From Candidatus Saccharimonadota bacterium (lineage in GTDB: Bacteria > Patescibacteriota > Saccharimonadia > Saccharimonadales > Saccharimonadaceae), in contig VGLK01000005.1 of assembly GCA_016866755.1 (NCBI GenBank), forward strand, positions 10,272 to 74,271: a stretch of 64,000 nucleotides of DNA. The letters are read 5' to 3'. This document shows positions 16,778 to 47,494 of this stretch, piece after piece (the first letter of the stretch is position 1; each line of letters starts with the position of its first letter). The notes beneath the pieces are model-generated. The model made no database searches and had not been told where the DNA came from. It was given only the letters and a program-made list of their open reading frames with translations. The position numbers were made by a program, and so were the translations under genes.

Positions 16778-16806
16778 AGTATAATTCACAATGTGTTCAC
16801 CAGCAA
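16778..16806 (-). promoter_or_regulatory. sigma70-like promoter for pilin gene 16246..16767
   Basis: Minus strand TTGCTG-17 nt-TATACT; -10 ends 10 nt before the ATG. Confidence 0.5.
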
Positions 16807-16821
16807 GTTGAGGCATGATTT

Positions 16822-17340: not shown

Positions 17341-17348
17341 CTAGTACA

Positions 17349-17376
17349 AGTATACAGATTGATTAAGCATAAGCAA
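17349..17376 (-). promoter_or_regulatory. sigma70-like promoter for pilin gene 16822..17340
   Basis: Minus strand TTGCTT-16 nt-TATACT; -10 ends 8 nt before the ATG. Confidence 0.45.
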
Positions 17377-17378
17377 AA

Positions 17379-18502: not shown

Positions 18503-18504
18503 GG

Positions 18505-19272: not shown

Positions 19273-19276
19273 AAGA

Positions 19277-19768: not shown

Positions 19769-19792
19769 GCTGTCACCATTTTAGCATAAGCT

Positions 19793-23527: not shown

Positions 23528-23602
23528 TCCGGCGTAGCTCAGTGGTAGAGCGGTTGGCTGTTAACCAATAGGTCACTGGTTCGAGCCCAGTCGCCGGAGC
23601 CA
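23528..23602 (+). tRNA. tRNA-Asn (anticodon GTT)
   Basis: Acceptor TCCGGCG/CGCCGGA, D arm GCTC-AGTGGTA-GAGC, anticodon arm GTTGG-CTGTTAA-CCAAT, T arm ACTGG-TTCGAGC-CCAGT, discriminator G, encoded CCA. Confidence 0.92.
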
Positions 23603-23825
23603 GAGCAAGCAGAGAAAAACGCAAACCTAGTTCCTAGACCTGCAATAACTTCTCTCCTTGCTCAGTCGAGAAGACAAAGTGCCGACAACAAGGTGCAGAT
23701 GTTGGAACCGTCCGAAAGGGCGGTTCTTTCATTTGACCCCTGTTACTTGGTTCTAGCCCAGCCCGTCCCGTCTTGAGGGAGCAAGCAGCCAAAAAGCTGA
23801 CCCGTTCCCTAGACCTGTCCCTGTC
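23603..23825 (+). repeat. tRNA-trailing block, copy 1 (hairpins, terminator, degenerate tRNA-3'-end remnant at 23749-23780)
   Basis: About 85 percent identical by eye to 26837-27055. Contains the 14-bp-arm inverted repeat 23603-23616/23650-23663 and the terminator hairpin 23705-23726 followed by a T-run. Confidence 0.8.
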
Positions 23826-24528: not shown

Positions 24529-26436
24529 ATGAGTGCTGATCATCAAGAGCCCAAGCATGGACGCATGAATAAAGTTTTAACTGTGGTGGCTGCTATCAGT
24601 TTTATCGGAGGATTGGCTTTTAGCCTATTCAAACTACCCGGAGCCGAAGCACTATATCTCGTCTCATTGGCAGCAGGTGGAATACCAGTTGCAATCTCAG
24701 CCATACGAAAAATCTTAAAGCGGAAGATATCCATTAGCCTACTGGTCACCATTGCTGCCCTTGGGGCATTATATCTTGGCCAGTTCGCCGAGGCTGCAGC
24801 TGTCATGTTCTTTTTCGCGCTGGCCGAGGCCTTCGAGGAGTTCGGCGAAGCTCGCTCGCAAAAAGCGGTCGCCGCCTTACTTGAGAAGTCTCCAAAGATC
24901 GCTCGCATGAAAGATGGACGTGAGGTTCCTGTTGAAGAAGTAAAAGAGGGCGAAATATTCAAAGTCAGACCTGGCGATATGGTACCACTTGACGGCATGG
25001 TTGTAGATGGAGAGTCCTCGATTGACGAAGCCACTATTACGGGTGAAAGTGTACCCAAAGAAAAGTACAAAGGGCAGGCAGTTTACGCGGGTACCTTAAA
25101 CCAAAGTGGCTATTTGGAAGTCAAAGTTACTAAAATAGCCGCCAATAGTACCTTGCAGAAAATCGTTACATTAATCGAACAGGCGCAGAAGTCACGCCCG
25201 GAAATGCAGGAATTCCTGGATAAGTTTGCTAGTTACTATATTCCTATTGCCATAGGGTTGGCAGTGTTAGTTGCCGTTGTACCGCCCGTATTTTTCGGCG
25301 AGCCATTTAGTGATTGGTTCACTAGAGCACTCATTTTATTGGTATTAGCGTGTCCAGACGCACTGGTCGTCTCGGCGCCAGTTGCGGTAGCAGCAGCTAT
25401 CGGAGGCGCTTCAAAGCGGGGCGTACTCATTAAAGGCGGCCGCTTCCTGGAAGTTTTAAGCAAAACCAGAGCGATTGCTTTCGATAAAACCAAGACCCTA
25501 ACCGTCGGAACGCCAGTGGTCGCGGAGGTAGTACTTCTGCACGGCGCCACAGAAGAAGATGTTATAGGTGATGCCGCTGGTATTGAAAAGTTCTCGTCGC
25601 ATCCACTAGCCAAGGCTATTGAGGATTATGCAAAACAGAAGGGCATCAAGCCGCACAAGATGGATAAATTCAAAAACGTCGCTGGCCGTGGCGGCAATGC
25701 TAACTGCTTGGTGTGCGATTCAAAAGAACATGCAATAGGCAACTTGCAACATATTGGTGCCAGCGCTGAAACCTGCGATCATGTGTTACCGGAAGTTGAA
25801 CGTCTTGAGGGCATGGGCATGACCGCTGTGCTGGTTAGTGAGGGCAAGAAAGTCATTGGCATCATCGGCATCACCGACGAACTGCGCAGCGATTCAAAGA
25901 GTGTCATTGATGCCCTAAAGAGGCTCAGGGTCACTCCTGTAATGCTAACCGGTGATAATCAGCGGGCGGCAGACTACATTGCCCAAAAGGTCGGCATTAA
26001 AGAAGCCTACGGGGCGCTCTTGCCCGAGCAAAAATCAGAACTTATCGAGAAGTTACAAGCTCGCTATCAGCGAGTGGCTATGGTTGGTGATGGCGTCAAT
26101 GACGCACCCTCACTCGCACGAGCTGATGTCGGCATCGCCATGGGCGGAGGAGGCTCTGACGTAGCAATTGAAACAGCAGATGTGACACTAATGAATGACG
26201 CCATAGGCACCATCCCCTATCTCCTGGGAGTTGGTCAGCAGACCTTCAGGGTGGTACGGCAGAATGTGTACGGCTCACTCATCGTTAAAGGTGTTATCCT
26301 GGTGCTCGGTATCGCAGGAGTTATCGGACTCAGCGTAGCCGTGGCAGCTGACGCTATAATGGCTGTGCTAGTAGTCCTGAATGGCTTACGCCTATTCAAT
26401 GCTGGCGGTAGCCAAGTTGCTATAATTAAAAAGTAA
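24529..26436 (+). CDS. heavy-metal P1B-type ATPase lacking an N-terminal metal-binding domain
   Basis: TGES, MLTGDN and GDGVNDAP motifs present. The TM6 motif is CPD and the phosphorylation motif reads DKTKT. Confidence 0.85.
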   Translation: MSADHQEPKHGRMNKVLTVVAAISFIGGLAFSLFKLPGAEALYLVSLAAGGIPVAISAIRKILKRKISISLLVTIAALGALYLGQFAEAAAVMFFFALAEAFEEFGEARSQKAVAALLEKSPKIARMKDGREVPVEEVKEGEIFKVRPGDMVPLDGMVVDGESSIDEATITGESVPKEKYKGQAVYAGTLNQSGYLEVKVTKIAANSTLQKIVTLIEQAQKSRPEMQEFLDKFASYYIPIAIGLAVLVAVVPPVFFGEPFSDWFTRALILLVLACPDALVVSAPVAVAAAIGGASKRGVLIKGGRFLEVLSKTRAIAFDKTKTLTVGTPVVAEVVLLHGATEEDVIGDAAGIEKFSSHPLAKAIEDYAKQKGIKPHKMDKFKNVAGRGGNANCLVCDSKEHAIGNLQHIGASAETCDHVLPEVERLEGMGMTAVLVSEGKKVIGIIGITDELRSDSKSVIDALKRLRVTPVMLTGDNQRAADYIAQKVGIKEAYGALLPEQKSELIEKLQARYQRVAMVGDGVNDAPSLARADVGIAMGGGGSDVAIETADVTLMNDAIGTIPYLLGVGQQTFRVVRQNVYGSLIVKGVILVLGIAGVIGLSVAVAADAIMAVLVVLNGLRLFNAGGSQVAIIKK

Positions 26437-26810: not shown

Positions 26811-26836
26811 TGGTTCGAATCCAGCCGCCGGAGCCA
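26811..26836 (+). pseudogene. displaced tRNA-Asn 3'-end fragment (T-arm half, acceptor, GCCA)
   Basis: TGGTTCGAATCCAGCCGCCGGAGCCA versus tRNA TGGTTCGAGCCCAGTCGCCGGAGCCA; no 5' half upstream. Confidence 0.8.
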
Positions 26837-27055
26837 AGCCAAGCAGAGAAAATCGCAGACCTAGTTCCTAGACCTGCAATAACTTCTCTCCTTGGTCAGT
26901 CAAGAAGAAGTTGTACTGACAACAAGGTACAAATGTTGGAACCGCCAGAAATGGCGGTTCTTTCATTGCATCTCTGTAGGCTGGTTCTAACCCAGCCTCT
27001 CCCGTCCTGAGGGAGCAAGCAGCTCCAAAGCCGACCTATTCCCCAGACCTGTTCA
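26837..27055 (+). repeat. tRNA-trailing block, copy 2 (second degenerate tRNA-end remnant at 26983-27014)
   Basis: Collinear with 23603-23825; same hairpins (26837-26850/26884-26897; terminator 26939-26960). Confidence 0.8.
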
Positions 27056-27662: not shown

Positions 27663-28934
27663 CTATAGCTTATAAAATTCAAGCTCACCGTTCTTTATCT
27701 GTAGCATCGGTCCCATGTTTGCTGCCAGGGCGGTTCTCTCGCTATCGGTACCATCAGCAAGTACATATCGAGCATACTCCACGAACGGGTTATCAAGTTT
27801 TTGGTCAATCTTGTAGTGTGTGAATATCGTCTTGGTTGTAAAAAAGTGTTTATCTACTCTGGCGCGAAGCTTATCCGTTATTTTTATATCTTCATGATGT
27901 TTCTCAATAAAGCTCTGCATTAACTCGCAAAGTTTTTCCTCATTCACATACTTCTCAGCACAATTCGGGTCTTTACGTTTTGTGCAGTTGTAATAGACGA
28001 ACCTCTTTACATCACCACTCTTTAGGGTTTTGAACTTGTCCTGAGCTGTGATATCAGCTGTACATCTTCCGCATTTCAGTAATCCTCGAAAAGCAAAGGT
28101 CTTTGACCCCCATATACCCTTATTTACTCCTCGTGTTTCCTGCACTATATCAAATAGTTCTTTGGATATGAGTGGCTTATGAGCGCCGTTGTACCATGGC
28201 GCATCCGGTGCTTCAGGATACTGAAACTTACCGTAGTAGAAGGGTGTACTTAAGATTACTAGTATCTGACTCACGCTTATTGGTTTGCCTGAGCGGTTCG
28301 TGAAACCTTGTTCATCGAGCCATGCTTTTATCCTGCGCCCGCTCCAGCGTTCGTATCCTGCTTTTTGAAAGGCTTCAATAATAAACTCTGCACGATCTGG
28401 GTCGATAATAATATCGTTAACTCCAGCGAAAGCACGGTTCATATAGCCAAGTGGAGCGACTCCGGGTCGCCACCCCATTTCACATTTGTTTCTGATGCCT
28501 CGTTTGACGTTAATACTCTTGTTGTCATTCTCGAGTTTTGCCTGAGAACAGAGAATCATTAGTAGAAACTTCTCATTCGGGTTATTCGTGAATGTCTGCG
28601 AATAGGTGCGTATATGCAGTAGTTTGCCTTGATCCATCAAGTCTACAACCGCACCTAAGTCACCAGCATTCCTGCTTAATCGATCAGGAGCCCACGTTAA
28701 AATGGCGTTATATTCTTCGTTTGTGATTCCTTTGAGTAATTTGTTATATTGCGGGCGTTTTCCTGAATCTTTAGCAGAGTGGCTTTCTTCTAATTCACAA
28801 ACCACGTTCAGGCCTTCATTATCAGCTAGGGCGCGCATTTCGTTGAGTTGAGAGTCAATAGACATTGCTTGACGCTCATCGCTCTCGGAGCTCTTACGTG
28901 CGTATAAACAGTATCTTAGTGGTGCTATTTCCAT
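27663..28934 (-). CDS. large serine recombinase
   Basis: Resolvase-type N-terminus YARKSS...SIDSQ, DRLSRN; recombinase domain; Cys-rich zinc-ribbon region (CGRC...YYNCTKRKDPNC); 423 aa. Confidence 0.9.
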   Translation of the reverse strand: MEIAPLRYCLYARKSSESDERQAMSIDSQLNEMRALADNEGLNVVCELEESHSAKDSGKRPQYNKLLKGITNEEYNAILTWAPDRLSRNAGDLGAVVDLMDQGKLLHIRTYSQTFTNNPNEKFLLMILCSQAKLENDNKSINVKRGIRNKCEMGWRPGVAPLGYMNRAFAGVNDIIIDPDRAEFIIEAFQKAGYERWSGRRIKAWLDEQGFTNRSGKPISVSQILVILSTPFYYGKFQYPEAPDAPWYNGAHKPLISKELFDIVQETRGVNKGIWGSKTFAFRGLLKCGRCTADITAQDKFKTLKSGDVKRFVYYNCTKRKDPNCAEKYVNEEKLCELMQSFIEKHHEDIKITDKLRARVDKHFFTTKTIFTHYKIDQKLDNPFVEYARYVLADGTDSERTALAANMGPMLQIKNGELEFYKL

Positions 28935-31356: not shown

Positions 31357-32196
31357 TTACAAACTAAGAGTATGATTGTGAAGCTTTTGTAGGCGCTCAT
31401 TTGTTACATCAACCCACCTCTGCTCAAGCTCCAGGCCAATCCATTTAATATCATGGCCTTGTTGGTTTAGCTTTTCGCAACAAACACCTAATGTGCCAGA
31501 TCCATGAAATGGGTCCAGGATTGTGCCATTATATTTTCCATTTGAATCTTTTGGGCAGTACGCCTTGATAAGCTCGGTAATTAGAGTCTCTGGCTTCTGG
31601 GTAGGGTGGGCGGTTCTTTCTTTGGCGAAGTTTTTACCTGCAAGTGTGGGGTATGCCCATATGTCGCCTCGTAGTGCACCTGCCGGGTTTGCCGTCCACT
31701 CTTTTTTAATTCCATTTTTATCCTTGTAATAAACAGGAGATTTTAACCTATCGGTGCTTTTGTAGGGAACTCTTACGTCATCAGCGTTGTAGGTCCACTC
31801 CTTGTTAGAATTGGAAAACCATAGAAAAGGCTCGTATTGAGTCGCGGGTGATTTTTTACTCCTGGAGAATCCGTTTTCGTAAAACCAGATATTCATACCC
31901 CTGTAAAACATACCTTCTTCATACATAAGAACCTGTAGGTAGCCGATGTATCTGTGTATGCCGAACCAAATCAAACTGCCACTATTAGTAAGTAGTCTGT
32001 GACATTTGTTAATGCGTTCACGACTTGTAGATATAAACTCATCAAGCGGCAGGGAGTCTGATTTATTTCCAAAATCTTTATCAAGGTTGTAGGGAGGGTC
32101 AGTGAGTATTAAGTCAAATTTAATGCCTTCATCGATCATTTGTGACATTACCTCGTCACAGTCGCCCTGGTACGCCCGATTGTATTCAAAGGTCAT
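31357..32196 (-). CDS. DNA methyltransferase (N6-A/N4-C, beta-class motif order)
   Basis: LILTDPPYNL (motif IV) then LDPFHGSGTLG (motif I). Confidence 0.85.
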   Translation of the reverse strand: MTFEYNRAYQGDCDEVMSQMIDEGIKFDLILTDPPYNLDKDFGNKSDSLPLDEFISTSRERINKCHRLLTNSGSLIWFGIHRYIGYLQVLMYEEGMFYRGMNIWFYENGFSRSKKSPATQYEPFLWFSNSNKEWTYNADDVRVPYKSTDRLKSPVYYKDKNGIKKEWTANPAGALRGDIWAYPTLAGKNFAKERTAHPTQKPETLITELIKAYCPKDSNGKYNGTILDPFHGSGTLGVCCEKLNQQGHDIKWIGLELEQRWVDVTNERLQKLHNHTLSL

Positions 32197-33323
32197 GCCT
32201 TTTTCGCCTCCATCTTTCTGAAAATAAGAATGTACTGATGGTGGATGTTTTCTACGTATGCAAACGGATAGCCATATGGCAGAAGGCTTTTATGGTTCTG
32301 TATTAAAACTTTTACACCCTGCAGCACCATTTGATATCCATCGCTAGTAAGTTTCTGGTCCATGGCCTGGATTAAATCGCTGTGAAAACTGATGAACTTT
32401 GATTTGTTTCGGAAGTCAGATACTACCAGACACATATATTTGTTAGGCCTGAGTACGCGACCGCTCTCCATAAAAAAGTCATCGACTAATATCTTCAGGA
32501 ATTCATCATAATCTTGAACATTCCCAAGGTCTCTTGCGTCGCCGTCTGAATAGTTTGTCGCTAAGTTGTTGGATACCCGGTCTTTTACCTTGTGGTCGGC
32601 CTTTTTGTTTAGGATTGACCAGTAAGGTGGACTGGTAACCATGAAGTCAAAAGAGGAGTCCTCAAAGTTGCGCAATAACTCTCTTGAGTCGCCTGTGATG
32701 AAGTCGTGCTTTTTTGATGCACCTTCCGACACCTCTGTCTCTATACGTTCTTTCGCTAACTCACTCCACGTTTCTTGAAGCTCTATACTCGTACAAAAGC
32801 GACCGTTTAGTTCACAGGCTTTAGCTGTTGAACCGATGCCGCCAAACGGATCTAACACACGTGCACCCTTCTTTGTAAAGAAAGTGATTAGCTGTTCGAT
32901 ATCTTGGAATGAGTATGGCGCAGGGTGCATCCTTTCAATTTGAGCATGTGGATGCTTGGAGCCAAGCCCTTTCTGGTACATATAACTTTTAGTTGCGGGT
33001 AGCCACTCTGTGCCATTTAAGTCATTTAGCGAGTTTCTCTTATCGACGGGCTTTCTCTCATCAACAAGGGATTCGATTGCGTTGTCTTTCTTAAATTTTG
33101 ACGGCTTTTGAGGCGCCTCTATACTTTTGCTTGCCTCCTTGAAGTTCTCAAGTGTATCCATGTCAAATCGTCGCTGACCACCTGGCGTCTTTGACGGCTC
33201 TAATGCCCCTGTCTCGACCATTCTATAAACAGTAGAGATACTTACGCCCAAAAAATCAGCCGCTTTTTTAGTGCTAACGGGATGGTTATTTTGTGATTTT
33301 TTCGTTTCCAAAGTTTCTTCCAT
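32193..33323 (-). CDS. DNA methyltransferase with N-terminal excisionase/MerR-type HTH
   Basis: STKKAADFLGVSISTVYRMVETG HTH; LDPFGGIGSTAKA (motif I) then MVTSPPYWS (motif IV); ATGA overlap with the downstream methylase. Confidence 0.85.
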   Translation of the reverse strand: MEETLETKKSQNNHPVSTKKAADFLGVSISTVYRMVETGALEPSKTPGGQRRFDMDTLENFKEASKSIEAPQKPSKFKKDNAIESLVDERKPVDKRNSLNDLNGTEWLPATKSYMYQKGLGSKHPHAQIERMHPAPYSFQDIEQLITFFTKKGARVLDPFGGIGSTAKACELNGRFCTSIELQETWSELAKERIETEVSEGASKKHDFITGDSRELLRNFEDSSFDFMVTSPPYWSILNKKADHKVKDRVSNNLATNYSDGDARDLGNVQDYDEFLKILVDDFFMESGRVLRPNKYMCLVVSDFRNKSKFISFHSDLIQAMDQKLTSDGYQMVLQGVKVLIQNHKSLLPYGYPFAYVENIHHQYILIFRKMEAKKA

Positions 33324-33344
33324 ACATTAATTGTACCGCTACTA

Positions 33345-33374
33345 TCAACACTAATCAACACTAATCAACACTAA
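33345..33374. repeat. three perfect tandem 10-bp units (TCAACACTAA) 22 nt upstream of the HTH-methylase start
   Basis: Read directly: ACTA-TCAACACTAA-TCAACACTAA-TCAACACTAA-TTAATA. Confidence 0.9.
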
Positions 33375-33512
33375 TTAATATATCTTCAATAAAATTGGTA
33401 CTACATAGACACAATCTTTTCACAGCTAACAAGCGATTGCCTAATCAAAAGATACTGTTCTGTATACAAACTGGATGCTACTATTCAAGTAATACAGTGC
33501 ACATATAGTAAA

Positions 33513-33980
33513 TTAGTAGGATTTTTCCAAACAACTTACTTCACTTTTTGTTGCATAAGCAGCCCCGTCTCGAGATATAGTCACCAAACCTTCGAAGTAC
33601 TTAGTCTCTCCAGGTTTAAGCAATGTGTCCCAGGTGACATAATCAATACCTTGGTATTGGCCATCTGGGCTTTGTATGCGGATATTACATGCAGGATTTG
33701 CGTCTACGACGCCCGTATTAGTAACAGTGAAAGTCAATCTTCGCCGGGTGTCGTCAGCGAAGGTGTTGCCAACGACTTTTATTTTGTAGTCAGGCTTTGC
33801 TGCAGGTTCTCCGGCGTTATCTTGTGTTTGGTTAGTGATAGGTTCTTCGTAGGCGCTGTCCATACTGCTACCTAAGAATCCTGACAAGAAGGGTAAGAAC
33901 ATAAAGATAATTATCAAGATTCCCCACCATCTGGTATACCATTTCTTTTTGCTAGATTGTTTAACGGGCTGTTCCTGCAT
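33513..33980 (-). CDS. membrane-anchored protein, possibly Ig-like (DUF4352-like)
   Basis: N-terminal TM helix, beta-rich C-terminal part; weak family guess. Confidence 0.45.
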   Translation of the reverse strand: MQEQPVKQSSKKKWYTRWWGILIIIFMFLPFLSGFLGSSMDSAYEEPITNQTQDNAGEPAAKPDYKIKVVGNTFADDTRRRLTFTVTNTGVVDANPACNIRIQSPDGQYQGIDYVTWDTLLKPGETKYFEGLVTISRDGAAYATKSEVSCLEKSY

Positions 33981-34178
33981 ATGTGTTCTCCTTCGCCAAA
34001 GTAATGCCGCACTTCAGCGAAGAAGTCCATATAAATAAAAAGGACAGCCACGCTGGACTGTCTAGGACCCAAACAAGCAGTTATGCCTATTCTTTTTTAC
34101 GTAGCTGCCCATTTTACGGCACAACTACGCAAACGTTTGCGTTAACTAATTGTTTGAATCCTAGACAGTCTTATTATA

Positions 34179-34631
34179 TCAGCTATTATCCAAAGGAGAC
34201 TGGTGGTCGACAAAATCTCTGTGATTAGATATAAACTGTCTAAGCGCATCGTAGCCTGCCTCGGTTTTCAGGATGTCGGCTAGCTCTTCATACGCTCGGT
34301 GCGATAGTCGAAGACGTTTAATTTCATCCGTGTACACATTCTTAGGGTAGGGTCGATATCGAGTAGTGTTGTGACTCAACCAATATGCAATAGACGCATA
34401 CTGGTTGTTCGAAATATTCTCGAGTAGTTTTGACTCGACAAAGTCGGTAAGTTTCTCACGTCCCTTATCCTGGGCCTGTTCCGCGGAATGCTTGAAAACG
34501 ATATCTGCATTGCACCAACGATAATAGGTAGAGCGTGCAATACCGATCTTTTTGCACGCTCGCTCTACCAAAGGATTATCCTCAAGCTCCTTTAAGACGC
34601 GTGCTCGTTTACCTCTCCACTTTTTCTCCAT
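34179..34631 (-). CDS. small HTH protein (terminase-small-subunit-like or regulator)
   Basis: ACKKIGIARSTYYRWCNAD helix-turn-helix; overlaps the ParB-methylase 3' end. Confidence 0.5.
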   Translation of the reverse strand: MEKKWRGKRARVLKELEDNPLVERACKKIGIARSTYYRWCNADIVFKHSAEQAQDKGREKLTDFVESKLLENISNNQYASIAYWLSHNTTRYRPYPKNVYTDEIKRLRLSHRAYEELADILKTEAGYDALRQFISNHRDFVDHQSPLDNS

Positions 34632-35952
34632 CGAGCTTCACCCTTTTCTGACCAGTTAGATTTTCCCAGCGTTTCAGTGCAACTTCGGCATACACGGGAG
34701 ATTTCTCCATAATGTAGCAGCGTCGATTCAATTTGGTTGCTGCAATTAAAGTCGATCCGCTACCGCAAAAAGGCTCGACGACTAAATCATCACGCTTTGT
34801 CAGCACCTTGATATACGGAATGAGGATTGGTAGCGGTTTTGTCCCAAAAATAACGCCTTGGCCACTATTCTTTTCATCCTCAGCGTTATGTGTGATGAAA
34901 TCAGTCGGCTGATATTTCTTACCCTTAGCATGAGATTCCCATTGGGGTTTACCGGATATAGCGTAGATCGCCGTCTCATACTCTTCTTGTAGGCCGCCAA
35001 CTTCTTCATCGTGGTTATACTCGACAGTACCATTTGCGCCGACCATAGCAATGTCATATTTACTAAAGAACTTATACTTACTGGCAAAGTTTTGATGACG
35101 AGTGGGGACGTGCCAGACTATCATATTCTTTACCTTGAAGTGCTTTTCCATTTCGCCCCATATGGTACGGAGGTTTTTCCAGTTTTCATACACAATGATG
35201 CTGAAGTCTGGCTTGGCGTTATCAGCGACGTTTTTCATCCATAGTTCAGTAAAGTCATCGGGCAGAACGTCCGTTTCAAGATAGCGTCGGTTGCGCTTCG
35301 ACCCAAAACCCGTCACAGGTTTGCCTTGTCGCTTAGCGTGGAGGTAATCGAGAATATATGGAGGATCGGTCATGCACATATCGGCCTTCTGTCCGTTCAT
35401 GAGTTTGGTGAAATCCTCACTTATTGTCGAATCACCACACATGAGCCGACTTTCACCCAGTTGATACACGTCTCCCTTTTTCACTTCGACATTATGTATG
35501 TCTAGTTTCTCAAGTTCCTTTTTTAGATTAAAACTTTCTGGTGTATCATCGACTTCAAACACACTATCAAGATCCTCACTAGTGAATCCGATGTCGGCTA
35601 GGATTGCTTCATCGAATTCCTTTAGTAAATCAAGATCCCATTCGCCAAGATTTTTGTTTAGGCGAAGATTTAACTCTTTCTCTCGCTCAAGCTCTGGAAT
35701 GGTAACGTATACGACAGGTAGCTCAGTAAAACCAAGATCCTTAGCGACTTTGAGTCGAAAATGTCCTCCGATTACCACATTTTCGCGACCGGGCGCGTTG
35801 TTAGCTAGGATTGGATCGACTATTCCAAATCGGCCAATACTATCTTTAAGTTGTTCTATGGCATCTTCTGACCATTTTCGCGGATTGTAAGGCGCAGCGT
35901 TTAAATCAGTTATTCTTATAGTTTGTATTTTTAATGTGTTATTTTGCTTCAT
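34609..35952 (-). CDS. ParB-like nuclease domain fused to DNA methyltransferase
   Basis: N-terminal ParB/Srx-like region (LNAAPYNPRKW, GGHFRL), CMTDPPYIL and EPFCGSGSTLIAA; start set at ATG 35952, preceded by AGGAGG. Confidence 0.85.
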   Translation of the reverse strand: MKQNNTLKIQTIRITDLNAAPYNPRKWSEDAIEQLKDSIGRFGIVDPILANNAPGRENVVIGGHFRLKVAKDLGFTELPVVYVTIPELEREKELNLRLNKNLGEWDLDLLKEFDEAILADIGFTSEDLDSVFEVDDTPESFNLKKELEKLDIHNVEVKKGDVYQLGESRLMCGDSTISEDFTKLMNGQKADMCMTDPPYILDYLHAKRQGKPVTGFGSKRNRRYLETDVLPDDFTELWMKNVADNAKPDFSIIVYENWKNLRTIWGEMEKHFKVKNMIVWHVPTRHQNFASKYKFFSKYDIAMVGANGTVEYNHDEEVGGLQEEYETAIYAISGKPQWESHAKGKKYQPTDFITHNAEDEKNSGQGVIFGTKPLPILIPYIKVLTKRDDLVVEPFCGSGSTLIAATKLNRRCYIMEKSPVYAEVALKRWENLTGQKRVKLDGEKVER

Positions 35953-36124
35953 GGCAAAACCTCCTATGTGAGGCTGTCGTCGACTGGAATAAAAAGAGCG
36001 TTCCAGGAATCGATCGAACAGCTGTTTAATACTGTTGATCAACTCGTGAAACGCGATATATTGCGTGTTAACTGGTTACACACGGTGATTGATAATCTTA
36101 TTTAAGCATAAAAAATTTGATAAA

Positions 36125-36766
36125 TCAATTACTGGTCTTTCGCATACGTTGGAGCCTCTTATATATAGGTTCGCCATAGATTCTTTCTTCAAGCTTCTTC
36201 CAGCCTGTTCTTGGCAGGCTCTTTTTTGCGGCATAGCCCGTAAATTCTGCCCGTTTTACGAGTGCGGCGTAGCTAAGACTTGTTGCGGTTTGATGTTTTA
36301 ATACAACCAGATCTCTTGCTGTGCACGAACCTTTAACCACATCCATTTTATCAAGGTCTTCGTGGAACATGGATGTTGGGTAGATGAATTCGGCAGCAAA
36401 AACTTCAGCGCCAATTTCTTTTAATTCATCTTGGACTTGGGTGAGACAGAAAGCTCCCACGGAATCCCGATCCATGAGATGATGCTTCAGTTCATGCGCA
36501 AGAGTAAAAATATATGGCTCATCGGGCAGTCGTGCGATAAGAACTGCAGGTATCCCGCTAAGGTCGGGGAAGTAAACACCCCTCAGTTTCTTAAAAGCCT
36601 TACCGCCCATGCCTGCCATCGGCCATTGATCGATGCCTATTCCGTAATGTTTGTAGATTTTTCTAAATTCAGTACGTGATATGCGTGCGCCGCTAATGTT
36701 AAATAGCGCTCTTTGCTCGTGCGCCAGAGTCTCCATTTTCTTGTAGTAATCTGAACGCTCCGACAT
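36125..36766 (-). CDS. ImmA/IrrE-family zinc metalloprotease
   Basis: HExxH as LAHELKHHL; located directly downstream of the XRE repressor gene. Confidence 0.8.
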   Translation of the reverse strand: MSERSDYYKKMETLAHEQRALFNISGARISRTEFRKIYKHYGIGIDQWPMAGMGGKAFKKLRGVYFPDLSGIPAVLIARLPDEPYIFTLAHELKHHLMDRDSVGAFCLTQVQDELKEIGAEVFAAEFIYPTSMFHEDLDKMDVVKGSCTARDLVVLKHQTATSLSYAALVKRAEFTGYAAKKSLPRTGWKKLEERIYGEPIYKRLQRMRKTSN

Positions 36767-36777: not shown

Positions 36778-37119
36778 CTACTTTTTTCTCAACTGACTTT
36801 GTGCATTTTTTATTTGTGCAAACTGAGTTAATGCCTCTATGTCATCTTTATGAAGACCTTGAGCTGCGCGCATCAGTCCCGCGAGGGGAGCGGGTGTATT
36901 TTCCTCCGGGAAGAAAGATGAAATTGGCTTACTAAAAAATTTCGCTAAATCATCGAGATCCTTGAGTTTTGGCTTGTATACGGCCTTTTCCCATCTAGAA
37001 ACGGTATTAGCTGCAACACCGAGTTTACTAGCTAAATCTTCTTGAGAGAGACCCTTGCCTCCGTTGTAAGAGGTACGGAATTCTTTGATTCTTTCGCCCA
37101 CATATTTTGATACTTCCAT
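36778..37119 (-). CDS. XRE-family HTH repressor
   Basis: LSQEDLASKLGVAANTVSRWEKAV. Confidence 0.85.
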   Translation of the reverse strand: MEVSKYVGERIKEFRTSYNGGKGLSQEDLASKLGVAANTVSRWEKAVYKPKLKDLDDLAKFFSKPISSFFPEENTPAPLAGLMRAAQGLHKDDIEALTQFAQIKNAQSQLRKK

Positions 37120-37138: not shown

Positions 37139-37190
37139 AGGATATTATATTCCTATTTTTGTTGACATGCAAGTTAAATAGGAATATCCT
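37139..37190. promoter_or_regulatory. divergent control region: two AGGA..TCCT palindromic boxes bracketing a TTGACA-17-TATCCT promoter
   Basis: AGGATATTATATTCCT (37139-37154), TTGACA (37162-37167), AGGAATATCCT (37180-37190, overlapping the -10). Confidence 0.5.
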
Positions 37191-37286
37191 ATAAATGTAG
37201 CAGTTACTCAACACAAAAAGGATTGCTTAACTGACGGAGTGATGAGGTGTATCACTTTTAAAATCCTAACAGAAAGGGGATATGGT

Positions 37287-37535
37287 ATGACACAACGTGA
37301 TTATCACGTAACCCGGCGACCAGACGGTCAATGGCAATATAAACTTCCACATGCACAACGTGCATCGGGTATAGCAAGTACGCAGGCTAAAGCTGAAATA
37401 GCAGCTAAACAGTCGGCTCGTAATGGTGGTGCCGGTGGTGAAATTACAATTCACCGACCAAACGGTCAAATACGTGATCGCGACACAATTTCACCCGCAA
37501 ATGATCCTAATCCACCCAAAGATGCGAGGCATTGA
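37287..37535 (+). CDS. DUF2188-like small protein
   Basis: HVTRRPDGQWQYK...ASTQAKAEIAAKQSARNGG..ITIHRPNGQIRDRDT pattern; GGGGA upstream of ATG 37287. Confidence 0.6.
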   Translation: MTQRDYHVTRRPDGQWQYKLPHAQRASGIASTQAKAEIAAKQSARNGGAGGEITIHRPNGQIRDRDTISPANDPNPPKDARH

Positions 37536-37536
37536 T

Positions 37537-38463
37537 ATGGGTGGATTTGTTATTAGCAACAAGCGTCGCATCCGGTCTCTGGTAAGTAATTTGCCAGAGA
37601 CCCTGAAGGGCAAGAGTATTGTACTGGCGGTTGATTTGTCGTCAAACCTCGCAAAGGCGCGACGCATAGGTTTCAGCGAGAATCCGACAGTGGGCGACAC
37701 TCTGCTTCCAAATGTCATTGGTCCTGCAACGCGTCTCAATACCTATGGCCGTGACATTATCCGTCGCGACAAAGAGAAAGAGACGCTGTATCGTGAACAT
37801 GCTTGGACTCATCAAGAGTGGGCAGGACGGGGTGAAACACGGACCGTAACTACTTATGTATCGATTCCTTACAAGCGCTTCCCGCGCGATCATGTCGAAG
37901 GATTTGAGATTGAGTTGTCGATTCGTGAGAGCAATGGAAAATTGATTATTGCTACGCTAGACCCAATTACGTACGATGACAAAAGCGCAGCTTTACTGAC
38001 TGCAGCAATTAACGTATATCTTGAAGTATTTGGATATGTGGAACTTTTTGATCAAAAACTCAGTCCGATACCGAAGCCAATGACCGTACGTCGCCTGAAC
38101 TGGGATGTATTGCCTAAAGGTGAAAAAATTACCAAAGAGAAGCTGAAAAATATTCTGTCGAAGTCGAAGCGAATTCGACCCGTAGAATGGAATCGTCAAG
38201 AAAAAATCAGTAGTTATAACCCTACCGAAATCGCCATCGGTACCGCAGGGTTTTCAGGGTATATAATTTACGTATTTCCTGAAAAGAAACTGGCCGTGCT
38301 AGAGAGTCTAAAGTACGGCAATGCAAGTTACATACTCGATGACGGTAGGTGGGAGGATCTGTCAAAATTAACTAAGCAACAGTTGCTATCGGCAAAACTG
38401 GTAAAAGCCCGTGAAGTACATTATGGTGCATGGGGTACGCGCATCGATAGGATACTGAAGTAG
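37537..38463 (+). CDS. hypothetical protein (308 aa)
   Basis: ATG 1 nt after the upstream TGA; no recognisable motif. Confidence 0.6.
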   Translation: MGGFVISNKRRIRSLVSNLPETLKGKSIVLAVDLSSNLAKARRIGFSENPTVGDTLLPNVIGPATRLNTYGRDIIRRDKEKETLYREHAWTHQEWAGRGETRTVTTYVSIPYKRFPRDHVEGFEIELSIRESNGKLIIATLDPITYDDKSAALLTAAINVYLEVFGYVELFDQKLSPIPKPMTVRRLNWDVLPKGEKITKEKLKNILSKSKRIRPVEWNRQEKISSYNPTEIAIGTAGFSGYIIYVFPEKKLAVLESLKYGNASYILDDGRWEDLSKLTKQQLLSAKLVKAREVHYGAWGTRIDRILK

Positions 38464-38464
38464 C

Positions 38465-38968
38465 GTGAGTCGTCGCACGCCCTGGTTTGAACACGTTTTA
38501 AGCGAGTATTCGCGGAGTACTGTGGTTGCAGTCTCCGCGATACTTGCCGTATTGCTGATGCTGTCGCTGGTCCAATTCGTGAAGGGCGGCGCTTTTGTTT
38601 GGAATGATATTGCGCTAATAGATCAACCAGATATTCTTAGCAGGACGTTCTATAGCGCATTAACGTTTGTATCAATAGGGGCTATTCTTTACCAACTACA
38701 ATTCTATAGGTTCTTGTCGTGGATATTCGGCTCTGACCGTAGCAGCTACAAAGAAGCAAAGCGCATCATATGGGTTGGTCTGATATTAATCATGTATTGG
38801 TATATCGTGCCGGTTATCGTTGATTTGTTGAATTCTACCGTGTCATTCGCATACAATGTTTCACTACTTGTATTGTATTTGTCACCTGTTCTTTTTATAG
38901 GCGTGGCAGGCTTATTTATTGTAGCCACTGTTTACCGAGTAAAATTAAAGAATGTACAAACACCTTAA
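38465..38968 (+). CDS. polytopic membrane protein (4-5 TM)
   Basis: GTG start 1 nt after the upstream stop; hydrophobic spans. Confidence 0.55.
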   Translation: MSRRTPWFEHVLSEYSRSTVVAVSAILAVLLMLSLVQFVKGGAFVWNDIALIDQPDILSRTFYSALTFVSIGAILYQLQFYRFLSWIFGSDRSSYKEAKRIIWVGLILIMYWYIVPVIVDLLNSTVSFAYNVSLLVLYLSPVLFIGVAGLFIVATVYRVKLKNVQTP

Positions 38969-39584
38969 AGATCACCGGTACTATAAAGAACTTTATGATC
39001 GACTGACCGTTGAGTCTGCTCGTCGCGGTATGAGCCATTACGATACCTTTTACTCTGAATTCGAAAGTAAGCTTCCTGTAAGTGAGAAGGTCGACAAGCC
39101 CGGTAGTGCTTTCTTGCTGAATGTTTTCTATATGGAAACTGTTGGTAGCGAACTCCTTGATCGTTATGAAAACCGAGATAGTAAAATCCAGGAATGGATC
39201 AATAGGGATCGGGCAAAAGATGAACAGATATCGTCAGCACGACTAGCAGAAGAACCTTCGTGTCAACACTGTGACAAACAGGGGCTCCGGATTATCGACA
39301 AATCGCTGATGCATCGAGGTGATGCATATGAGATTGATGATCCCGAAGAGGTTCTCTTTATGTTGCGGTGTCCTCACTGCGACAAGAACAGCGCTTTTTG
39401 GGAAGATGGCAAGGAGCGTGTAGATTTCAGCTACAGACCTGCTGGTACTACTGTATTTTACGGTACTAAAGTTCGTGAGCAGCCAGACGTAGACCTGAAC
39501 GCTCTTTGTGCTCACACGCCAGCAAACTCAACCTTCCGTGCTGACTGCATAGAAAGATATAGGCGTCAGTATTATGGCAACTAA
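38952..39584 (+). CDS. hypothetical protein with CxxC...CxxC zinc ribbon
   Basis: CQHCDK ... CPHCDK; overlaps the upstream gene by 17 nt. Confidence 0.6.
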   Translation: MYKHLKDHRYYKELYDRLTVESARRGMSHYDTFYSEFESKLPVSEKVDKPGSAFLLNVFYMETVGSELLDRYENRDSKIQEWINRDRAKDEQISSARLAEEPSCQHCDKQGLRIIDKSLMHRGDAYEIDDPEEVLFMLRCPHCDKNSAFWEDGKERVDFSYRPAGTTVFYGTKVREQPDVDLNALCAHTPANSTFRADCIERYRRQYYGN

Positions 39585-39605
39585 ACTTATGATATATTTA
39601 TACTA

Positions 39606-40223
39606 ATGCCATTCCCTGCCACAACGAATGCCGACTACTTCACCTTTAATGTTCACAGCTCCCTTCTGCTTGTGGGGCAGACTGGCTCTGGCAAAACGGA
39701 GCTGGTGCAGCGATACATCAAACGACTAGAGCGAGCGTTTACGCCTGAGCAAATGCAGTATATTCTATATGACCTTAAGCAGGTTGGGATTGGCACCAAG
39801 GACGGAGGCGGTGCAAAAGCAGAATACCTTTATACACCGGTACGTACTGGTAAACCAGAATACGTGGATTACCTTGAAGAGCTAGCCGACCTAGCTCAAG
39901 CGAGAGCTGAGGGCAAGGAGCCAAAGGACAAGCTCCTATTTATCTATATCGAGGAGTGCGACCTCGCTGTCCAATATCCAGAGAGATTTCATGCTGCGGT
40001 AATGACAATAAACAAGTACGCTAGAATGGCTAATATGAAGCTAGTCTTCTCTACATCTAGCCCAAGGCGAGACGTCATCCCTCCAGATTTCCGCGATAGC
40101 TTCGAGCTAATACTGAGCGGGCCACTTGCAGGCAAGTTTGATGAAGAGACGCTAGGCGTATCCGACACACAGAGTATAATGTTTCCGTATGAATTTATAG
40201 TCAAAGAGGTCAAAGCAGGCTGA
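39606..40223 (+). CDS. minimal FtsK/SpoIIIE-like P-loop ATPase
   Basis: Walker A GQTGSGKT, Walker B LLFIYIEECD, then MKLVFSTSSPRRDVIPPDFRDSFELIL resembling the FtsK motor RAxGIHLIxATQRP..VI block; only 205 aa, no TM region. Confidence 0.6.
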   Translation: MPFPATTNADYFTFNVHSSLLLVGQTGSGKTELVQRYIKRLERAFTPEQMQYILYDLKQVGIGTKDGGGAKAEYLYTPVRTGKPEYVDYLEELADLAQARAEGKEPKDKLLFIYIEECDLAVQYPERFHAAVMTINKYARMANMKLVFSTSSPRRDVIPPDFRDSFELILSGPLAGKFDEETLGVSDTQSIMFPYEFIVKEVKAG

Positions 40224-40224
40224 T

Positions 40225-40857
40225 ATGGCATATATCACCGACCAACTTCGCTGGCAAGAAACAATGAACACCGTCACAGTAGACTGTTCGCTAGATATTG
40301 CTATACATCCTGCAGAGTCTGATACGGTGCTACTAATCATTCCTGGTGTAGACGGCTCAGTGAATGGCTATCAAGACAAGTACATACGCATAGCCGAGCA
40401 GGCACAAGACAGGTATGGTATAGCGGCTGTGCGTATTGCTAACCCATTCATCAGTTCATTCCACTGGGAGAGTAATCCTCGCCGCATACTGGACTACATA
40501 GCTAGTAACACTGACACTATCGCGGGAGGTGGTGAAGCAATTCGCATTAAGATAATGGCTCACTCTGCTGGGGCATCAATAATAACGAAGATAGCCCACG
40601 AGTACGACAATATAACCGACCTGCTGCTTGTTAATCCAGCCGAGAAGCTTGACGGTGATGCTATACGCAGCGGACTTAAGAAGACTGACGCCAAGGTAAC
40701 AGTAATATTTGGCGAGAAAGACCCCTCTGTGAGCTTCTCAGAGGCTCTACGAGGCGATGGACGCAGGGTTGTAGTACTTGAGGGTGCTGACCACAATTTC
40801 TCTGGTGAAAACCTACAAGCATTTATAGAACTACCCGAAAGGTACTTGCTATCATGA
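40225..40857 (+). CDS. alpha/beta hydrolase
   Basis: Nucleophile elbow MAHSAGAS; C-terminal EGADHNF His. Confidence 0.6.
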   Translation: MAYITDQLRWQETMNTVTVDCSLDIAIHPAESDTVLLIIPGVDGSVNGYQDKYIRIAEQAQDRYGIAAVRIANPFISSFHWESNPRRILDYIASNTDTIAGGGEAIRIKIMAHSAGASIITKIAHEYDNITDLLLVNPAEKLDGDAIRSGLKKTDAKVTVIFGEKDPSVSFSEALRGDGRRVVVLEGADHNFSGENLQAFIELPERYLLS

Positions 40858-41279
40858 ACATCTATCTAGACATCGACGGCGTACTACTTGCAAATGAGGA
40901 GAACTTGGCGATCGGTGCGGCTGAGTTTATCAAATACGCCGCAGATAATTTCGATGTATATTGGCTCACAACCCACTGCATGGATGGTACGACCGATCAC
41001 GCAATAGAATATCTGCAGCGCGGAAGCGATGAAGACTTGCGGCCATGGTTAGAAAAGTTTAAACCTGTCACGTGGAGCTTAAAAAAGACGGAAGCGATCG
41101 ATTTCACAAAACCATTTATGTGGTTCGATGACGATTGCTTTAGCGGTGAGAAGATTGATCTTCACGAGCACGGAGTGTTCAATTCATGGATTGAGGTTAA
41201 TCTAGCTAAATATCCAGATCAAATGGTGCATGAGCTAAAGTTGCTAAAGTCTATCGCCGAGGAAAAGGCCACAATATGA
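40854..41279 (+). CDS. HAD-superfamily phosphatase-like protein
   Basis: Motif I IYLDIDGVLL, motif IV-like WFDDD; ATGA coupling on both sides. Confidence 0.6.
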   Translation: MNIYLDIDGVLLANEENLAIGAAEFIKYAADNFDVYWLTTHCMDGTTDHAIEYLQRGSDEDLRPWLEKFKPVTWSLKKTEAIDFTKPFMWFDDDCFSGEKIDLHEHGVFNSWIEVNLAKYPDQMVHELKLLKSIAEEKATI

Positions 41280-42010
41280 GTACTATTGATGTTGAGTTTG
41301 ATTTTCAGCAAGAGGCTGGTTTTGATAGAGCCGGCGTCCAGCGAGATTCGGATAAATACAGTCCAACACTACAGGAGTATCATCGAATCCTGTGGAGTAA
41401 ACCGCTACCAAATAGAAAAATGTTCGAGCTAACAAAAATAAGCAATAACCGCCTGTACCATAAGTCAGAATTAGGTGAGTTCTATTTATCAAGCGATAGA
41501 GCAATCGCTACCTTTTCGTCATGGGTAAAAATGAAACCCATAATCGATCAGATTTCAGCGAAAGAGCTGGATGATTTTATTCGGCTTACTGACACTATTG
41601 GCGGTATTGTGATTTGGCCGAGCAATAAAATAAATGGCTCCCAGACTATCAATGCCGCCAGGGGCTTTAACCGGCAGATAGTTGATCGCCTAGATCTGAC
41701 TATTGAGTGTATCCGGCGCTTTTATTTAGGTGAAGCTAGCCCGCTATATGAAACCTTCGTGAGGTATAGTGACTTCTTTCAACTTTTCGATGATTTTAAG
41801 GGCTATATCGACTTCTTTTTGCTACAAGATTACGTGACAGAAGATTATATGAGCGTAAAAATAGCAAAGCCTTTCGACGACTTCCGCTCGACACCGATAC
41901 CGAAAACGGTCGACGAATACCTGTCGTATATGAATATGACGAGTGAGCTGATAAAGCTAAGGAATCAAAGAATTAAAAATAACTCAACTCAAGTAAAACA
42001 ACTATCGTAG
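41276..42010 (+). CDS. hypothetical protein (244 aa)
   Basis: ATGA-coupled last gene of the operon; no recognisable motif. Confidence 0.6.
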   Translation: MSTIDVEFDFQQEAGFDRAGVQRDSDKYSPTLQEYHRILWSKPLPNRKMFELTKISNNRLYHKSELGEFYLSSDRAIATFSSWVKMKPIIDQISAKELDDFIRLTDTIGGIVIWPSNKINGSQTINAARGFNRQIVDRLDLTIECIRRFYLGEASPLYETFVRYSDFFQLFDDFKGYIDFFLLQDYVTEDYMSVKIAKPFDDFRSTPIPKTVDEYLSYMNMTSELIKLRNQRIKNNSTQVKQLS

Positions 42011-42598
42011 CATTAATCTTGATAGTCTGAAGGTTCTTTTTTCATTTCTTAAATGACAGAACGCAACAAGATAAGCAATGCCATGCTCTTTTGTGAAGTG
42101 GGATGGCGTAATTTCACGATAGGTAACTTTTTCATTAATATCTGTATATGTTATCTTTATGCGTGATTTCATAGCTATAGCACGTTCGATAGATTGCACG
42201 GTAGAGCTAGGCGTAGCCCTGGATCCATAGTTGCTGTCATGGTTGAATGATTCGCCAAAAATTTTTCGGTTATCTTTTTTCTCGTGACAGTATTTACACA
42301 GCGTCTGCAAGTTTTCCAGATTATTCGTGCCGCCCTGCGATAGCTGAACAATATGATCAACCGTAAGGTTATCTTTTCTCCTACATGAACGACAAGTATA
42401 ACTGTCACGAGCGAGTACCGCTTTTCGGATACGATCCCAGCTACTTCCAGAGGCAATTCCTTTACCTTGAATCTCACTGTCCCACTCGTTTGTCTCTCGC
42501 GGTGTAGTAACCTTTGTGGAATGCGAAGAATCTTTAGACTTTTTGTCAAAAATTGAGGAAATTATTCCAATACCTACGAGTAACGCTAACCACTCCAT
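42002..42598 (-). CDS. membrane-anchored HNH endonuclease with C-terminal WYL-like domain
   Basis: N-terminal TM helix; CRSCRRKDNLTVDHIVQLSQGGTNNLENLQTLCKYCHEKK; IKITYTD...REITPSHF...IAYLVAFCHLRNEKRTFRLSRL. Confidence 0.75.
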   Translation of the reverse strand: MEWLALLVGIGIISSIFDKKSKDSSHSTKVTTPRETNEWDSEIQGKGIASGSSWDRIRKAVLARDSYTCRSCRRKDNLTVDHIVQLSQGGTNNLENLQTLCKYCHEKKDNRKIFGESFNHDSNYGSRATPSSTVQSIERAIAMKSRIKITYTDINEKVTYREITPSHFTKEHGIAYLVAFCHLRNEKRTFRLSRLMLR

Positions 42599-43905: not shown

Positions 43906-44295
43906 ATGAAAACTAATATTCCCGTCAATTGTGGCAACTCGCCTCGTTCACTTCTTGCGATAGAAATTGCAGTCAATCTGGCTTCTAATAAATACGATAA
44001 ACTCGAACCTCTGCTGGCTGAATATTTTACATGGTGCATTGCAGGTAGTAATGAAAAAGTACCGAAATCAAAACTAAAATCATATATGGATAAGGTGACT
44101 CAATCAAAAATTCACATAGATAAGTATGATATTTTAACTTCAATTTCACATGGCAAATACGCAGCGGTAAGTAGTTGCGCGTATGCGTCGAATGGGTATA
44201 TATTCAATTCTCATGACTTGTATGAATTTACAGGTGCTGGTGCCTCGGCAAAGCTTCTTAAAGTAACGTCATACATAGTTGGTAGTAAACACTAG
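43906..44295 (+). CDS. hypothetical protein (129 aa)
   Basis: ORF bounded by R2 and R3; a decayed paralogue lies at 47204-47494. Confidence 0.6.
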   Translation: MKTNIPVNCGNSPRSLLAIEIAVNLASNKYDKLEPLLAEYFTWCIAGSNEKVPKSKLKSYMDKVTQSKIHIDKYDILTSISHGKYAAVSSCAYASNGYIFNSHDLYEFTGAGASAKLLKVTSYIVGSKH

Positions 44296-47203: not shown

Positions 47204-47494
47204 ATGAAATCCCATATTCCCGGCAATCGCGGCAACTCACCTCGTTCGCTCCTTGCGATAGAATCGAGAAATTTCTTGCTAAAGATTTTCGTGGGGTGCA
47301 GCGGGTAGCGATAGGGTTATATTAAATTCGATATTCTGACGTCGATTTCTCACGGCAAATACACAGCCGTCAGCAGCCGTGCGTATATGTCGAATGGGGC
47401 AATCTTAAACTCTTACGACCTGTACAAATTTACAAGTACTGATAGTCAAGCAAAGCTTCGCAAAATAACATCGTACGTAGTTGATACGCTATAA
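47204..47494 (+). pseudogene. decayed paralogue of 43906..44295
   Basis: The first ~85 nt and last ~170 nt align with 43906-44295, together with the upstream CTGGACTTTTTGGTATATAAAATAGTAATG. There is an internal deletion and an in-frame TAG after 34 codons. Confidence 0.75.

Follow-up and report, generated by a model that had tools for sequence, protein, structure and literature searches.

Eight tightly packed genes in a Saccharibacteria genome appear to be a mosaic of independently circulating cassettes on a putative integrative island

The element considered here is an array of eight plus-strand open reading frames (ORFs), g1 to g8, at positions 37287-42010 of a 64,000-nucleotide stretch of DNA from Candidatus Saccharibacteria (contig VGLK01000005.1, positions 10,272 to 74,271; "the window" below means this whole stretch, and all positions are counted along it). 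In keeping with this host, one Saccharibacteria metagenome-assembled genome encodes proteins with 100% identity to g5 and g4. Gaps within the array do not exceed 21 nt, and a preliminary description of the window proposed that the eight genes are one system, built around a split FtsK-like ATPase and controlled by an XRE/ImmA switch. Comparison with related loci gives a different picture: the array appears to be a chimera of independently circulating cassettes on an integrative island, not one eight-gene system. Such a mosaic, in which g5, g6 and g7 form a DNA-handling module, is in our judgement rather likely to be the best explanation overall.

The first gene, g1 (37287-37535), encodes a DUF2188 protein (Pfam E 4.5e-18, 65.6 bits against a cut-off of 22; PADLOC candidate PDC-S16, E 1.9e-19), and is separated by 1 nt from g2 (37537-38463), which encodes a 308-aa member of a widespread family of proteins of ~300 aa. 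After another 1-nt gap comes g3 (38465-38968, GTG start), a 167-aa membrane protein with four to five hydrophobic segments by hydropathy; its gene overlaps by 17 nt that of the zinc-ribbon protein g4 (38952-39584), which has two CxxC pairs. A 21-nt gap precedes g5 (39606-40223), a 205-aa ATPase of the FtsK/HerA superfamily made up of the RecA-like beta domain only, and a 1-nt gap separates it from g6 (40225-40857), a 210-aa alpha/beta hydrolase. The last two genes, for a 141-aa capless HAD-type phosphatase-like protein (g7, 40854-41279) and a DUF6994 protein (g8, 41276-42010), are each joined to the preceding one by an ATGA overlap, and g8 in turn overlaps, at its 3' end, the end of an HNH-WYL gene that converges on it (42002-42598). 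Judging by this spacing, all eight genes are probably co-transcribed. Coordinates and sequence agree with the packing and junctions given in the preliminary description, and its domain calls for g1, g3, g4, g6 and g7 largely hold. These family assignments are direct observations, as is that of g8, previously listed as unknown: it matches DUF6994 over its full length (Pfam E 7.8e-85, 284.6 bits against a cut-off of 27).

About 115 related loci (cited below by L numbers), anchored on g5, g2 or g4, were compared by searching all window proteins against them, g5 loci being counted at 32% or higher identity to the window g5. Among the 86 g2 loci, g1 is present beside g2 in 15/86, and g5, g6, g7 and g8 in 0/86; among the 29 g5 loci, g6 occurs in 10/29, g7 in 12/29 and a serine recombinase in 10/29, and g1, g2, g3 and g8 in 0/29. 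In none of the ~115 loci fetched was g8 found, whether beside or together with another array gene. Individual loci tell the same story. In L056 (Saccharimonadales), an ImmA-XRE pair diverges from DUF2188-g2, which is followed by unrelated genes, without g3 or g5 to g8 and with a g4-like gene on the opposite strand. L172, with g1 and g2 proteins 88% and 87% identical to those of the window, has the order hth, ParB-methylase, ImmA, XRE, diverging from g1-g2-g3, after which the contig ends. L173 has a g5 that is 85% identical and nucleotide homology from 39608, the start of g5, to ~40805, inside g6; its genes upstream of g5 are unrelated to the window. The mosaic structure is directly visible in these comparisons.

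Could all eight genes nevertheless form one new inducible system, either a split TraB-like translocase of double-stranded DNA (g3, g4 and g5) or a multi-enzyme abortive module? The tight packing with its translational-coupling-type junctions, the single promoter/operator-like site upstream and the lack of strong internal terminators would suit it, but the full set, or even g2 with g5, was found together in 0 of ~115 related loci, g4 is shorter than the full-length members of its family, unrelated genes stand upstream of g5 in its closest relatives, and g5 itself has no transmembrane (TM) or winged helix-turn-helix (wHTH) domain. We regard this reading as very unlikely and largely refuted. The preliminary description had itself named a lack of conserved co-occurrence as an argument against its proposal, and such co-occurrence is largely lacking; the eight-gene reading should not be carried forward.

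The point at which one cassette meets the next can be placed fairly narrowly. Homologues of g4 match only its residues 1 to ~153, and full-length relatives are 340-397 aa long, with a C-terminal domain of ~200 aa that is absent from the window; at the nucleotide level, homology of g4 to its relatives stops at 39409. The gene therefore looks like the N-terminal remnant of a 340-397-aa island gene. Since g4 homology stops at 39409 and the g5 homology of L173 starts at 39608, the junction between the island backbone and the g5-g6 cassette appears to fall within 39410-39607, and the cassette of g5, g6 and g7 would have recombined in behind the broken g4. Elsewhere, g4 relatives adjoin ParB-methylase or ImmA genes. 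The zinc-ribbon protein had been proposed as a partner of the ATPase; the idea that g4 and g5 co-evolved as partners was rejected, g4 being truncated and occurring elsewhere without g5. A relative of g3 was found only in L172, directly after g1-g2. Together, g3 and the truncated g4 are leftovers of the island backbone. At the other end of the array, the DUF6994 family of g8 has been predicted by the Pfam authors to have an HNH-like beta-beta-alpha fold akin to that of type IV restriction enzymes (PMC11701544); a PDB sequence search with g8 gave no match. It is predicted to be a separate, nuclease-like cargo gene.

Upstream of the array, on the minus strand, lie an XRE-family helix-turn-helix (HTH) repressor of CapH/ImmR-like type (36778-37119; Pfam HTH_3 E 1.7e-11) and, as second gene of this divergent pair, a CapP-like M78 metallopeptidase of the ImmA/IrrE type (36125-36766; Pfam Peptidase_M78 E 2.3e-8). 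Within the 167-nt region between the XRE gene and g1 lies a site that resembles a promoter (TTGACA-17-TATCCT, 37162-37190); a 17-nt inverted repeat (37142-37158 and 37176-37192) brackets it. By consensus match, 37142-37192 is the candidate operator/promoter of the array, on the plus strand; promoter and terminator scans gave no more matches than expected from shuffled sequence, and no strong terminators were found by the scan within the array. The XRE/ImmA switch of the preliminary description is thus present; the pair is conserved only with g1-g2, from which it also diverges in L056 and L172.

Divergent regulators of this kind have a published counterpart. Lau et al. (bioRxiv 10.1101/2022.04.27.489752) describe CapH (HTH) and CapP (ImmA-like peptidase) genes located upstream of, and opposite to, the defence operons that they control, and responding to DNA damage; their list of operons with CapH/CapP includes "DUF2188 + hypothetical protein", and they cite an earlier prediction of DUF2188 with DUF3892 in defence. 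By analogy, the XRE/ImmA pair with g1 and g2 is probably a repressor/protease-controlled, DNA-damage-inducible cassette of CapH/CapP type: a damage-activated peptidase would cleave the repressor, g1 and g2 would be expressed, and g2 would act as the effector, which is its likely role.

The g2 protein matches no family in Pfam, NCBIfam, PADLOC or PHROG, and names of its cluster members are uninformative. Its family comprises 67 clusters and 298 metagenome relatives and reaches well beyond Saccharibacteria, to plasmids of Lactococcus, Leptospira, Acinetobacter, Bacillus and Deinococcus; relatives are also present on 11 IMG/VR contigs. The AlphaFold (AF2) model is confident (pLDDT 91), and a Foldseek search with it against PDB and BFVD found nothing below E 0.1 (best 0.1); no resemblance to the fold of an enzyme was recognised. 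The notion of g2 as the double-jelly-roll capsid protein of a tectivirus- or corticovirus-like prophage was rejected: its fold has no viral match, and viral contigs hold no close relatives of g5. When the genes next to g2 in ~58 distinct loci were scanned with Pfam, DUF2188 lay directly downstream in 10/58 and LexA-like Peptidase_S24 repressors directly upstream in 7/59. Other immediate neighbours include XRE/ImmA pairs, DUF3892 and, once, a RelA_SpoT gene (also L058); defence-type genes (SLATT, TIR, AbiEii-like, restriction-modification) are scattered among them.

Some g2 homologues stand in settings worth recording for themselves. In the marine TARA contigs L058, L059 and L060 (genes at ~6911-8927 of L058), a RelA_SpoT gene of 341 aa, like that of a small alarmone synthetase, precedes the homologue by 64 nt, and GmrSD and HEPN RiboL-PSP genes come after it; RelA_SpoT and the g2 family may form a pair of toxSAS type. 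On Lactococcus cremoris SK11 plasmid 5 (NC_008507.1; L174), a mobilisable plasmid of dairy lactococci on which an FtsK-like protein of 358 aa is also encoded, the homologue (3989-4900) begins 18 nt after a DEAD/DEAH helicase gene of ~1560 aa.

The second cassette centres on g5. The motifs GQTGSGK[TS] and IEE.D are invariant in 25 sequences; R127 and the STS(R)PS motif (STS.P) are invariant too, and the family has a mean column identity of 61%. A g5 profile matches EccC and FtsK chains in the PDB at E 1e-10 to 1e-12. The AF2 model (pLDDT 89) finds its best Foldseek match in the beta domain of the FtsK motor (2IUS, 6T8B; E 2e-10, TMq 0.75-0.79), followed by EccC, TcpA and STIV2 B204. Against Pfam PF01580, g5 scores below the gathering threshold (21.4 bits, cut-off 24), with only residues 17-64 matched. 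No hydrophobic or TM segment, alpha domain, wHTH or FtsK_gamma match was found in g5, and the beta-domain match spans its 205 aa end to end. On account of the motifs, the PDB profile matches and the best superposition on the FtsK motor, g5 can be taken as a genuine FtsK-type ATPase, apparently reduced to the RecA-like domain; in this the preliminary description was right.

A protein of this size also calls to mind viral genome packaging. If the region were a decayed prophage or phage satellite, g5 could be an A32/B204-type packaging ATPase with membrane proteins as partners, as is the case in tailless viruses that contain a membrane. In size it equals STIV/STIV2 B204, to which it can be aligned along its full length (PDB profile E 1e-4; Foldseek E 7e-7), a terminase-small-like HTH gene and a ParB-methylase gene lie upstream, and small membrane proteins adjoin g5. 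Yet its fold is nearer to cellular FtsK (TMq 0.75-0.79) than to B204 (0.55-0.61); 2.9 million IMG/VR contigs hold no close relative of g5 (best 33% identical); Pfam and PHROG scans detected no capsid, portal or tail gene on the island; and an 11-kb element that carries g5 elsewhere (L054/L055, below) has no room for structural genes. Of the readings considered here, we give this one the least credence. The g5 family is essentially confined to Saccharibacteria, its nearest plasmid relatives being FtsK-domain proteins of Streptomyces, Paenibacillus and Streptococcus with 24-29% identity.

The two enzymes encoded beside g5 also have well-conserved catalytic motifs, a direct observation from the alignments. 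In g6, Ser114 (HSAGA), Asp166 and His190 are invariant in 7 aligned sequences, and its profile matches cinnamoyl esterases in the PDB (E 1e-7), with Pfam Hydrolase_4 below threshold: g6 appears to be a serine alpha/beta hydrolase. In g7, HAD motifs I to IV are represented by D6 (34/34), D8 (29/34), T39 (33/34), K78 (33/34), D92 (32/34) and D93 (33/34). The protein reaches the threshold of no Pfam HAD model, and its profile has one marginal HAD match in the PDB, over motif I (E 0.015); its sequence marks it as a putative capless HAD-type phosphatase-like protein. The g7 family has 518 representatives, with relatives fused to FtsK_gamma, HAD_SAK_2, ADP-ribosylglycohydrolase, HD and GNAT domains. 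The FtsK gamma fusion is that of P0378 (314 aa), which combines a g7-like HAD domain with a C-terminal FtsK gamma (KOPS-type winged-helix) domain, and is the sole such case among ten long g7 relatives scanned.

The trio of g5, g6 and g7 is found in several arrangements: g7-g5-g6 (L003), g5-g6-g7 (L054/L055), g5-g6 (L052/L053 and L173) and g5-g7 (L016). In L009 and L010, g6-g7 is divergent from g5, and in L001 and L008 a g7 remnant lies beside g5. Because adjacency persists through this reshuffling, the three genes are likely to be functionally linked. Three elements (L036, L052 and L054), with g5 copies 33%, 69% and 73% identical to that of the window, share a common architecture: a recombinase gene (-), a 233-270-aa gene (-), a 189-229-aa gene (+), a 72-77-aa two-TM gene (+), g5 (+) and variable cargo. 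One of these can be delimited: 5175-16159 of L054 and 4647-15630 of L055, from two metagenome contigs, are 99% identical over 11 kb and have different flanks, for which reason the element appears to be mobile. The identity starts within the recombinase gene, 24 nt from its 3' end. This element carries the serine recombinase, g5-g6-g7, an AAA_12 helicase of 1289 aa that includes an MTES_1575 nuclease domain, and a gene with weak likeness to HNH; the trio accounts for roughly one gene in four.

A membrane partner for the ATPase, as the preliminary description proposed, receives weak support from these contexts: unrelated small membrane proteins precede g5 in five loci, directly in L052, L054, L036 and L173 and ~190 nt upstream in L005, and in the window g3 is one gene away from g5. 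The PHROG scan assigned no family to these membrane proteins or to the conserved backbone proteins of the L036, L052 and L054 elements. A Replic_Relax gene is present in L005 only, and precomputed Pfam annotation of the L052-L055 neighbours, which was not a dedicated search, shows no relaxase or type IV secretion system (T4SS). A look through the literature for Saccharibacteria integrative elements with FtsK-like genes turned up nothing specific.

What might the trio do? Tentatively, and with a conviction that falls a little short of probable, we infer a DNA-handling module of serine-recombinase elements. The minimal ATPase g5 would dock to a small membrane protein, like a split translocase of TcpA/TraB type, and would serve the transfer or maintenance of the element by moving or processing its DNA, with g7 and g6 acting on nucleic-acid ends or adducts. 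The FtsK gamma DNA-binding domain to which one g7 relative is fused fits this reading. The chromosomes of Patescibacteria encode a T4SS of monoderm type, and relaxases are very few (10.1101/2025.01.22.634366); this might leave room for unconventional mobilisation. In a more ambitious and distinctly improbable version, the two-TM protein, g5 and g6/g7 would be a previously unrecognised minimal module of DNA translocation or mobilisation, by which serine-recombinase elements move between epibiotic Saccharibacteria cells, possibly via the relaxase-poor chromosomal T4SS; independently of this, g2 would be the first of a new fold family, that of effectors induced by damage.

The trio may also be mere cargo of the serine-recombinase elements: a stand-alone anti-phage or anti-plasmid defence, or counter-defence, cassette in which g5 senses or loads on foreign DNA and the effectors g6 and g7 have nucleotides, nucleic-acid ends or signalling molecules as their targets. 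The trio travels as a cassette with sharp boundaries, and its neighbours include T5orf172, HATPase_c_3/Ymh and methylase genes in L003, an SLFN-type helicase in L001, and AAA_12-REase, ApeA-HEPN and DUF6414 in L052-L055; g7 relatives are fused to conflict-system domains (ADP-ribosylglycohydrolase, HD, HAD_SAK_2), and g5 has weak PADLOC matches to mad8 and HerA. The g5 matches, however, are limited to the P-loop region, and g6 and g7 fit no PADLOC model. The strong conservation of the g5 family and its confinement to Saccharibacteria likewise sit poorly with defence, as do its fixed position by the recombinase and regulatory region in three divergent elements, while the cargo downstream varies, and the recurrence of the trio beside upstream membrane proteins. 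Defence is a possible explanation, somewhat less likely than DNA handling but competing closely with it.

Several points weigh against a mosaic with a DNA-handling trio. The co-occurrence counts are conditional on anchoring by g5, g2 or g4, and many of the contigs are short; co-transcription in the host genome could still make the eight products cooperate. Near g5, no relaxase or replication gene was recognised and no capsid or T4SS annotations were seen among the neighbours (no dedicated relaxase or T4SS search was made), and the conserved backbone proteins of g5 elements are without family matches. In L003 and L001, where the setting resembles a defence island, the trio has no recombinase with it, and cassette-like mobility is equally typical of defence genes. 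We know of no established DNA-transfer role for g6 or g7. Finally, g2 may differ from the "hypothetical proteins" that accompany DUF2188 in the Extensimonas system of the literature.

The surroundings of the array bear on how it is carried. It appears to sit on an integrative island with its left end near 26.8 kb and, tentatively, its right end at ~44 kb. The island has a large serine recombinase (27663-28934, -; Pfam Resolvase, Recombinase and Zn_ribbon_recom), of which an 82%-identical copy occurs with the same neighbours in L036; the island is taken to be integrative because a 190-aa gene to the left of the recombinase travels with it in L036 too. Along the minus strand upstream of the array are this recombinase, two unknown genes, three DNA methylases and the terminase-small-like HTH gene. 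The last of these, overlapping a ParB_N-DNA methylase gene (34179-36042, -), belongs to the conserved backbone of the island family: copies of this HTH/ParB-methylase backbone, 72-80% identical, adjoin g2 or g4 relatives in L090, L169 and L172. By domain content, the three methylase genes (31357-36042, -) are N6_N4_Mtase, HTH_17 with N6_N4_Mtase, and ParB_N with N6_N4_Mtase. No restriction endonuclease was recognised beside them, and these orphan methylases look like self-protection or anti-restriction cargo. Pfam and PHROG scans recognised no relaxase, T4SS or replication gene on the island (no dedicated relaxase or T4SS search was made, and clt repeats were not searched for), phage and plasmid collections contain no DNA nearly identical to the island, and a PDB sequence search with a 568-aa island protein gave no match.

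At the left end of the island, the second copy of a 242-bp direct repeat (23577-23818 and 26811-27052, 83% identity) abuts the serine-recombinase element. The repeat consists of the 3' part of a tRNA-Asn gene (23528-23602), the only match in an Rfam scan of the whole window, and ~200 nt downstream of it; between the two copies is a segment of ~3 kb with a gene for a P-type ATPase (24529-26436). A similar tRNA-3' fragment adjoins the homologous recombinase in L036. Because of the tRNA-Asn repeat and the fragment in L036, the sequence suggests serial integration at tRNA-Asn. On the right side of the island, a 129-aa ORF (43906-44295) has a 44%-identical paralogous stretch at 47204-47488, 3 kb further on, past a CWB2-repeat protein gene. 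Far to the left, 11792-20338 (-) is occupied by a tandem array of fifteen paralogues (156-255 aa), which all start like type IV prepilins (GFTIVELLIVIVVIAILAAITIVAYNGIQ) and differ at their C-termini; 105/105 pairs match at E<1e-3.

Saccharibacteria genomes are ~1 Mb in size, and to our knowledge little is known of how mobile elements move among these bacteria or of how they resist phages. What appeared to be an eight-gene system resolves here into smaller units that can be tested separately. One is the g5-g6-g7 trio, built on the smallest FtsK-type ATPase format and tied to serine-recombinase elements; the other is the DUF2188-g2 pair; either could reveal a new effector or a new way of moving DNA. 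In kind, a mosaic accessory operon on an integrative island is already known, and the regulated g1-g2 cassette matches a published candidate-defence architecture. Of most interest are the lineage-specific, uncharacterised trio and g2, a repressor-controlled protein without a match among solved or viral structures.

The array as a whole matches no described multi-gene defence system in PADLOC, as the preliminary description had stated. Membership in MADS (mad1-8) was considered and rejected: the published model makes mad6, mad7 and mad8 mandatory, mad6 and mad7 are absent, and mad8 has only a partial match on the P-loop of g5 (E 3.5e-6). PADLOC also gave generic mad1 and mad2 matches on the HTH and methylase genes. 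Among phosphatases, the nearest likeness of g7 is to the capless HADs of HAD_SAK/polynucleotide-phosphatase type (Pfam PF18143 context), with which it shares its length of ~140 aa and the DxD, T, K and DD motifs; unlike them, it falls below every Pfam HAD threshold, with the marginal PDB match given above.

For g5, two kinds of ATPase invite comparison. The packaging ATPases STIV2 B204 and A32 are of the same size and likewise single-domain proteins of FtsK/HerA type, but g5 has no viral structural genes detected near it and no close relative in viral contigs, and its fold matches theirs less well than that of FtsK. With TraB of actinomycete plasmids and actinomycete integrative and conjugative elements, and with TcpA, g5 shares the RecA-like FtsK beta-domain fold, Walker A and B motifs and STS(R)PS, and the small two-TM protein that often precedes g5 on integrative elements resembles, in split form, the TM-plus-ATPase layout of TcpA. 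The analogy to TraB drawn in the preliminary description does not extend to the protein itself: at ~200 aa, g5 lacks the alpha domain, the gamma/wHTH domain and any TM segment in the same chain, and, unlike TraB and TcpA, it is consistently linked to esterase-like and HAD-like enzymes.

The closest resemblance to a known system is that of the regulated g1-g2 cassette to CapH/CapP operons. Six further, unrelated genes are appended in the window, and repressor cleavage and a defence phenotype are predicted by analogy; DUF2188 precedes g2 here, whereas in most g2 loci it follows. In both, an HTH repressor and an M78 peptidase are encoded upstream on the opposite strand, DUF2188 is the first controlled gene, and the LexA-like S24 repressors that precede g2 in other loci fit damage-inducible control.

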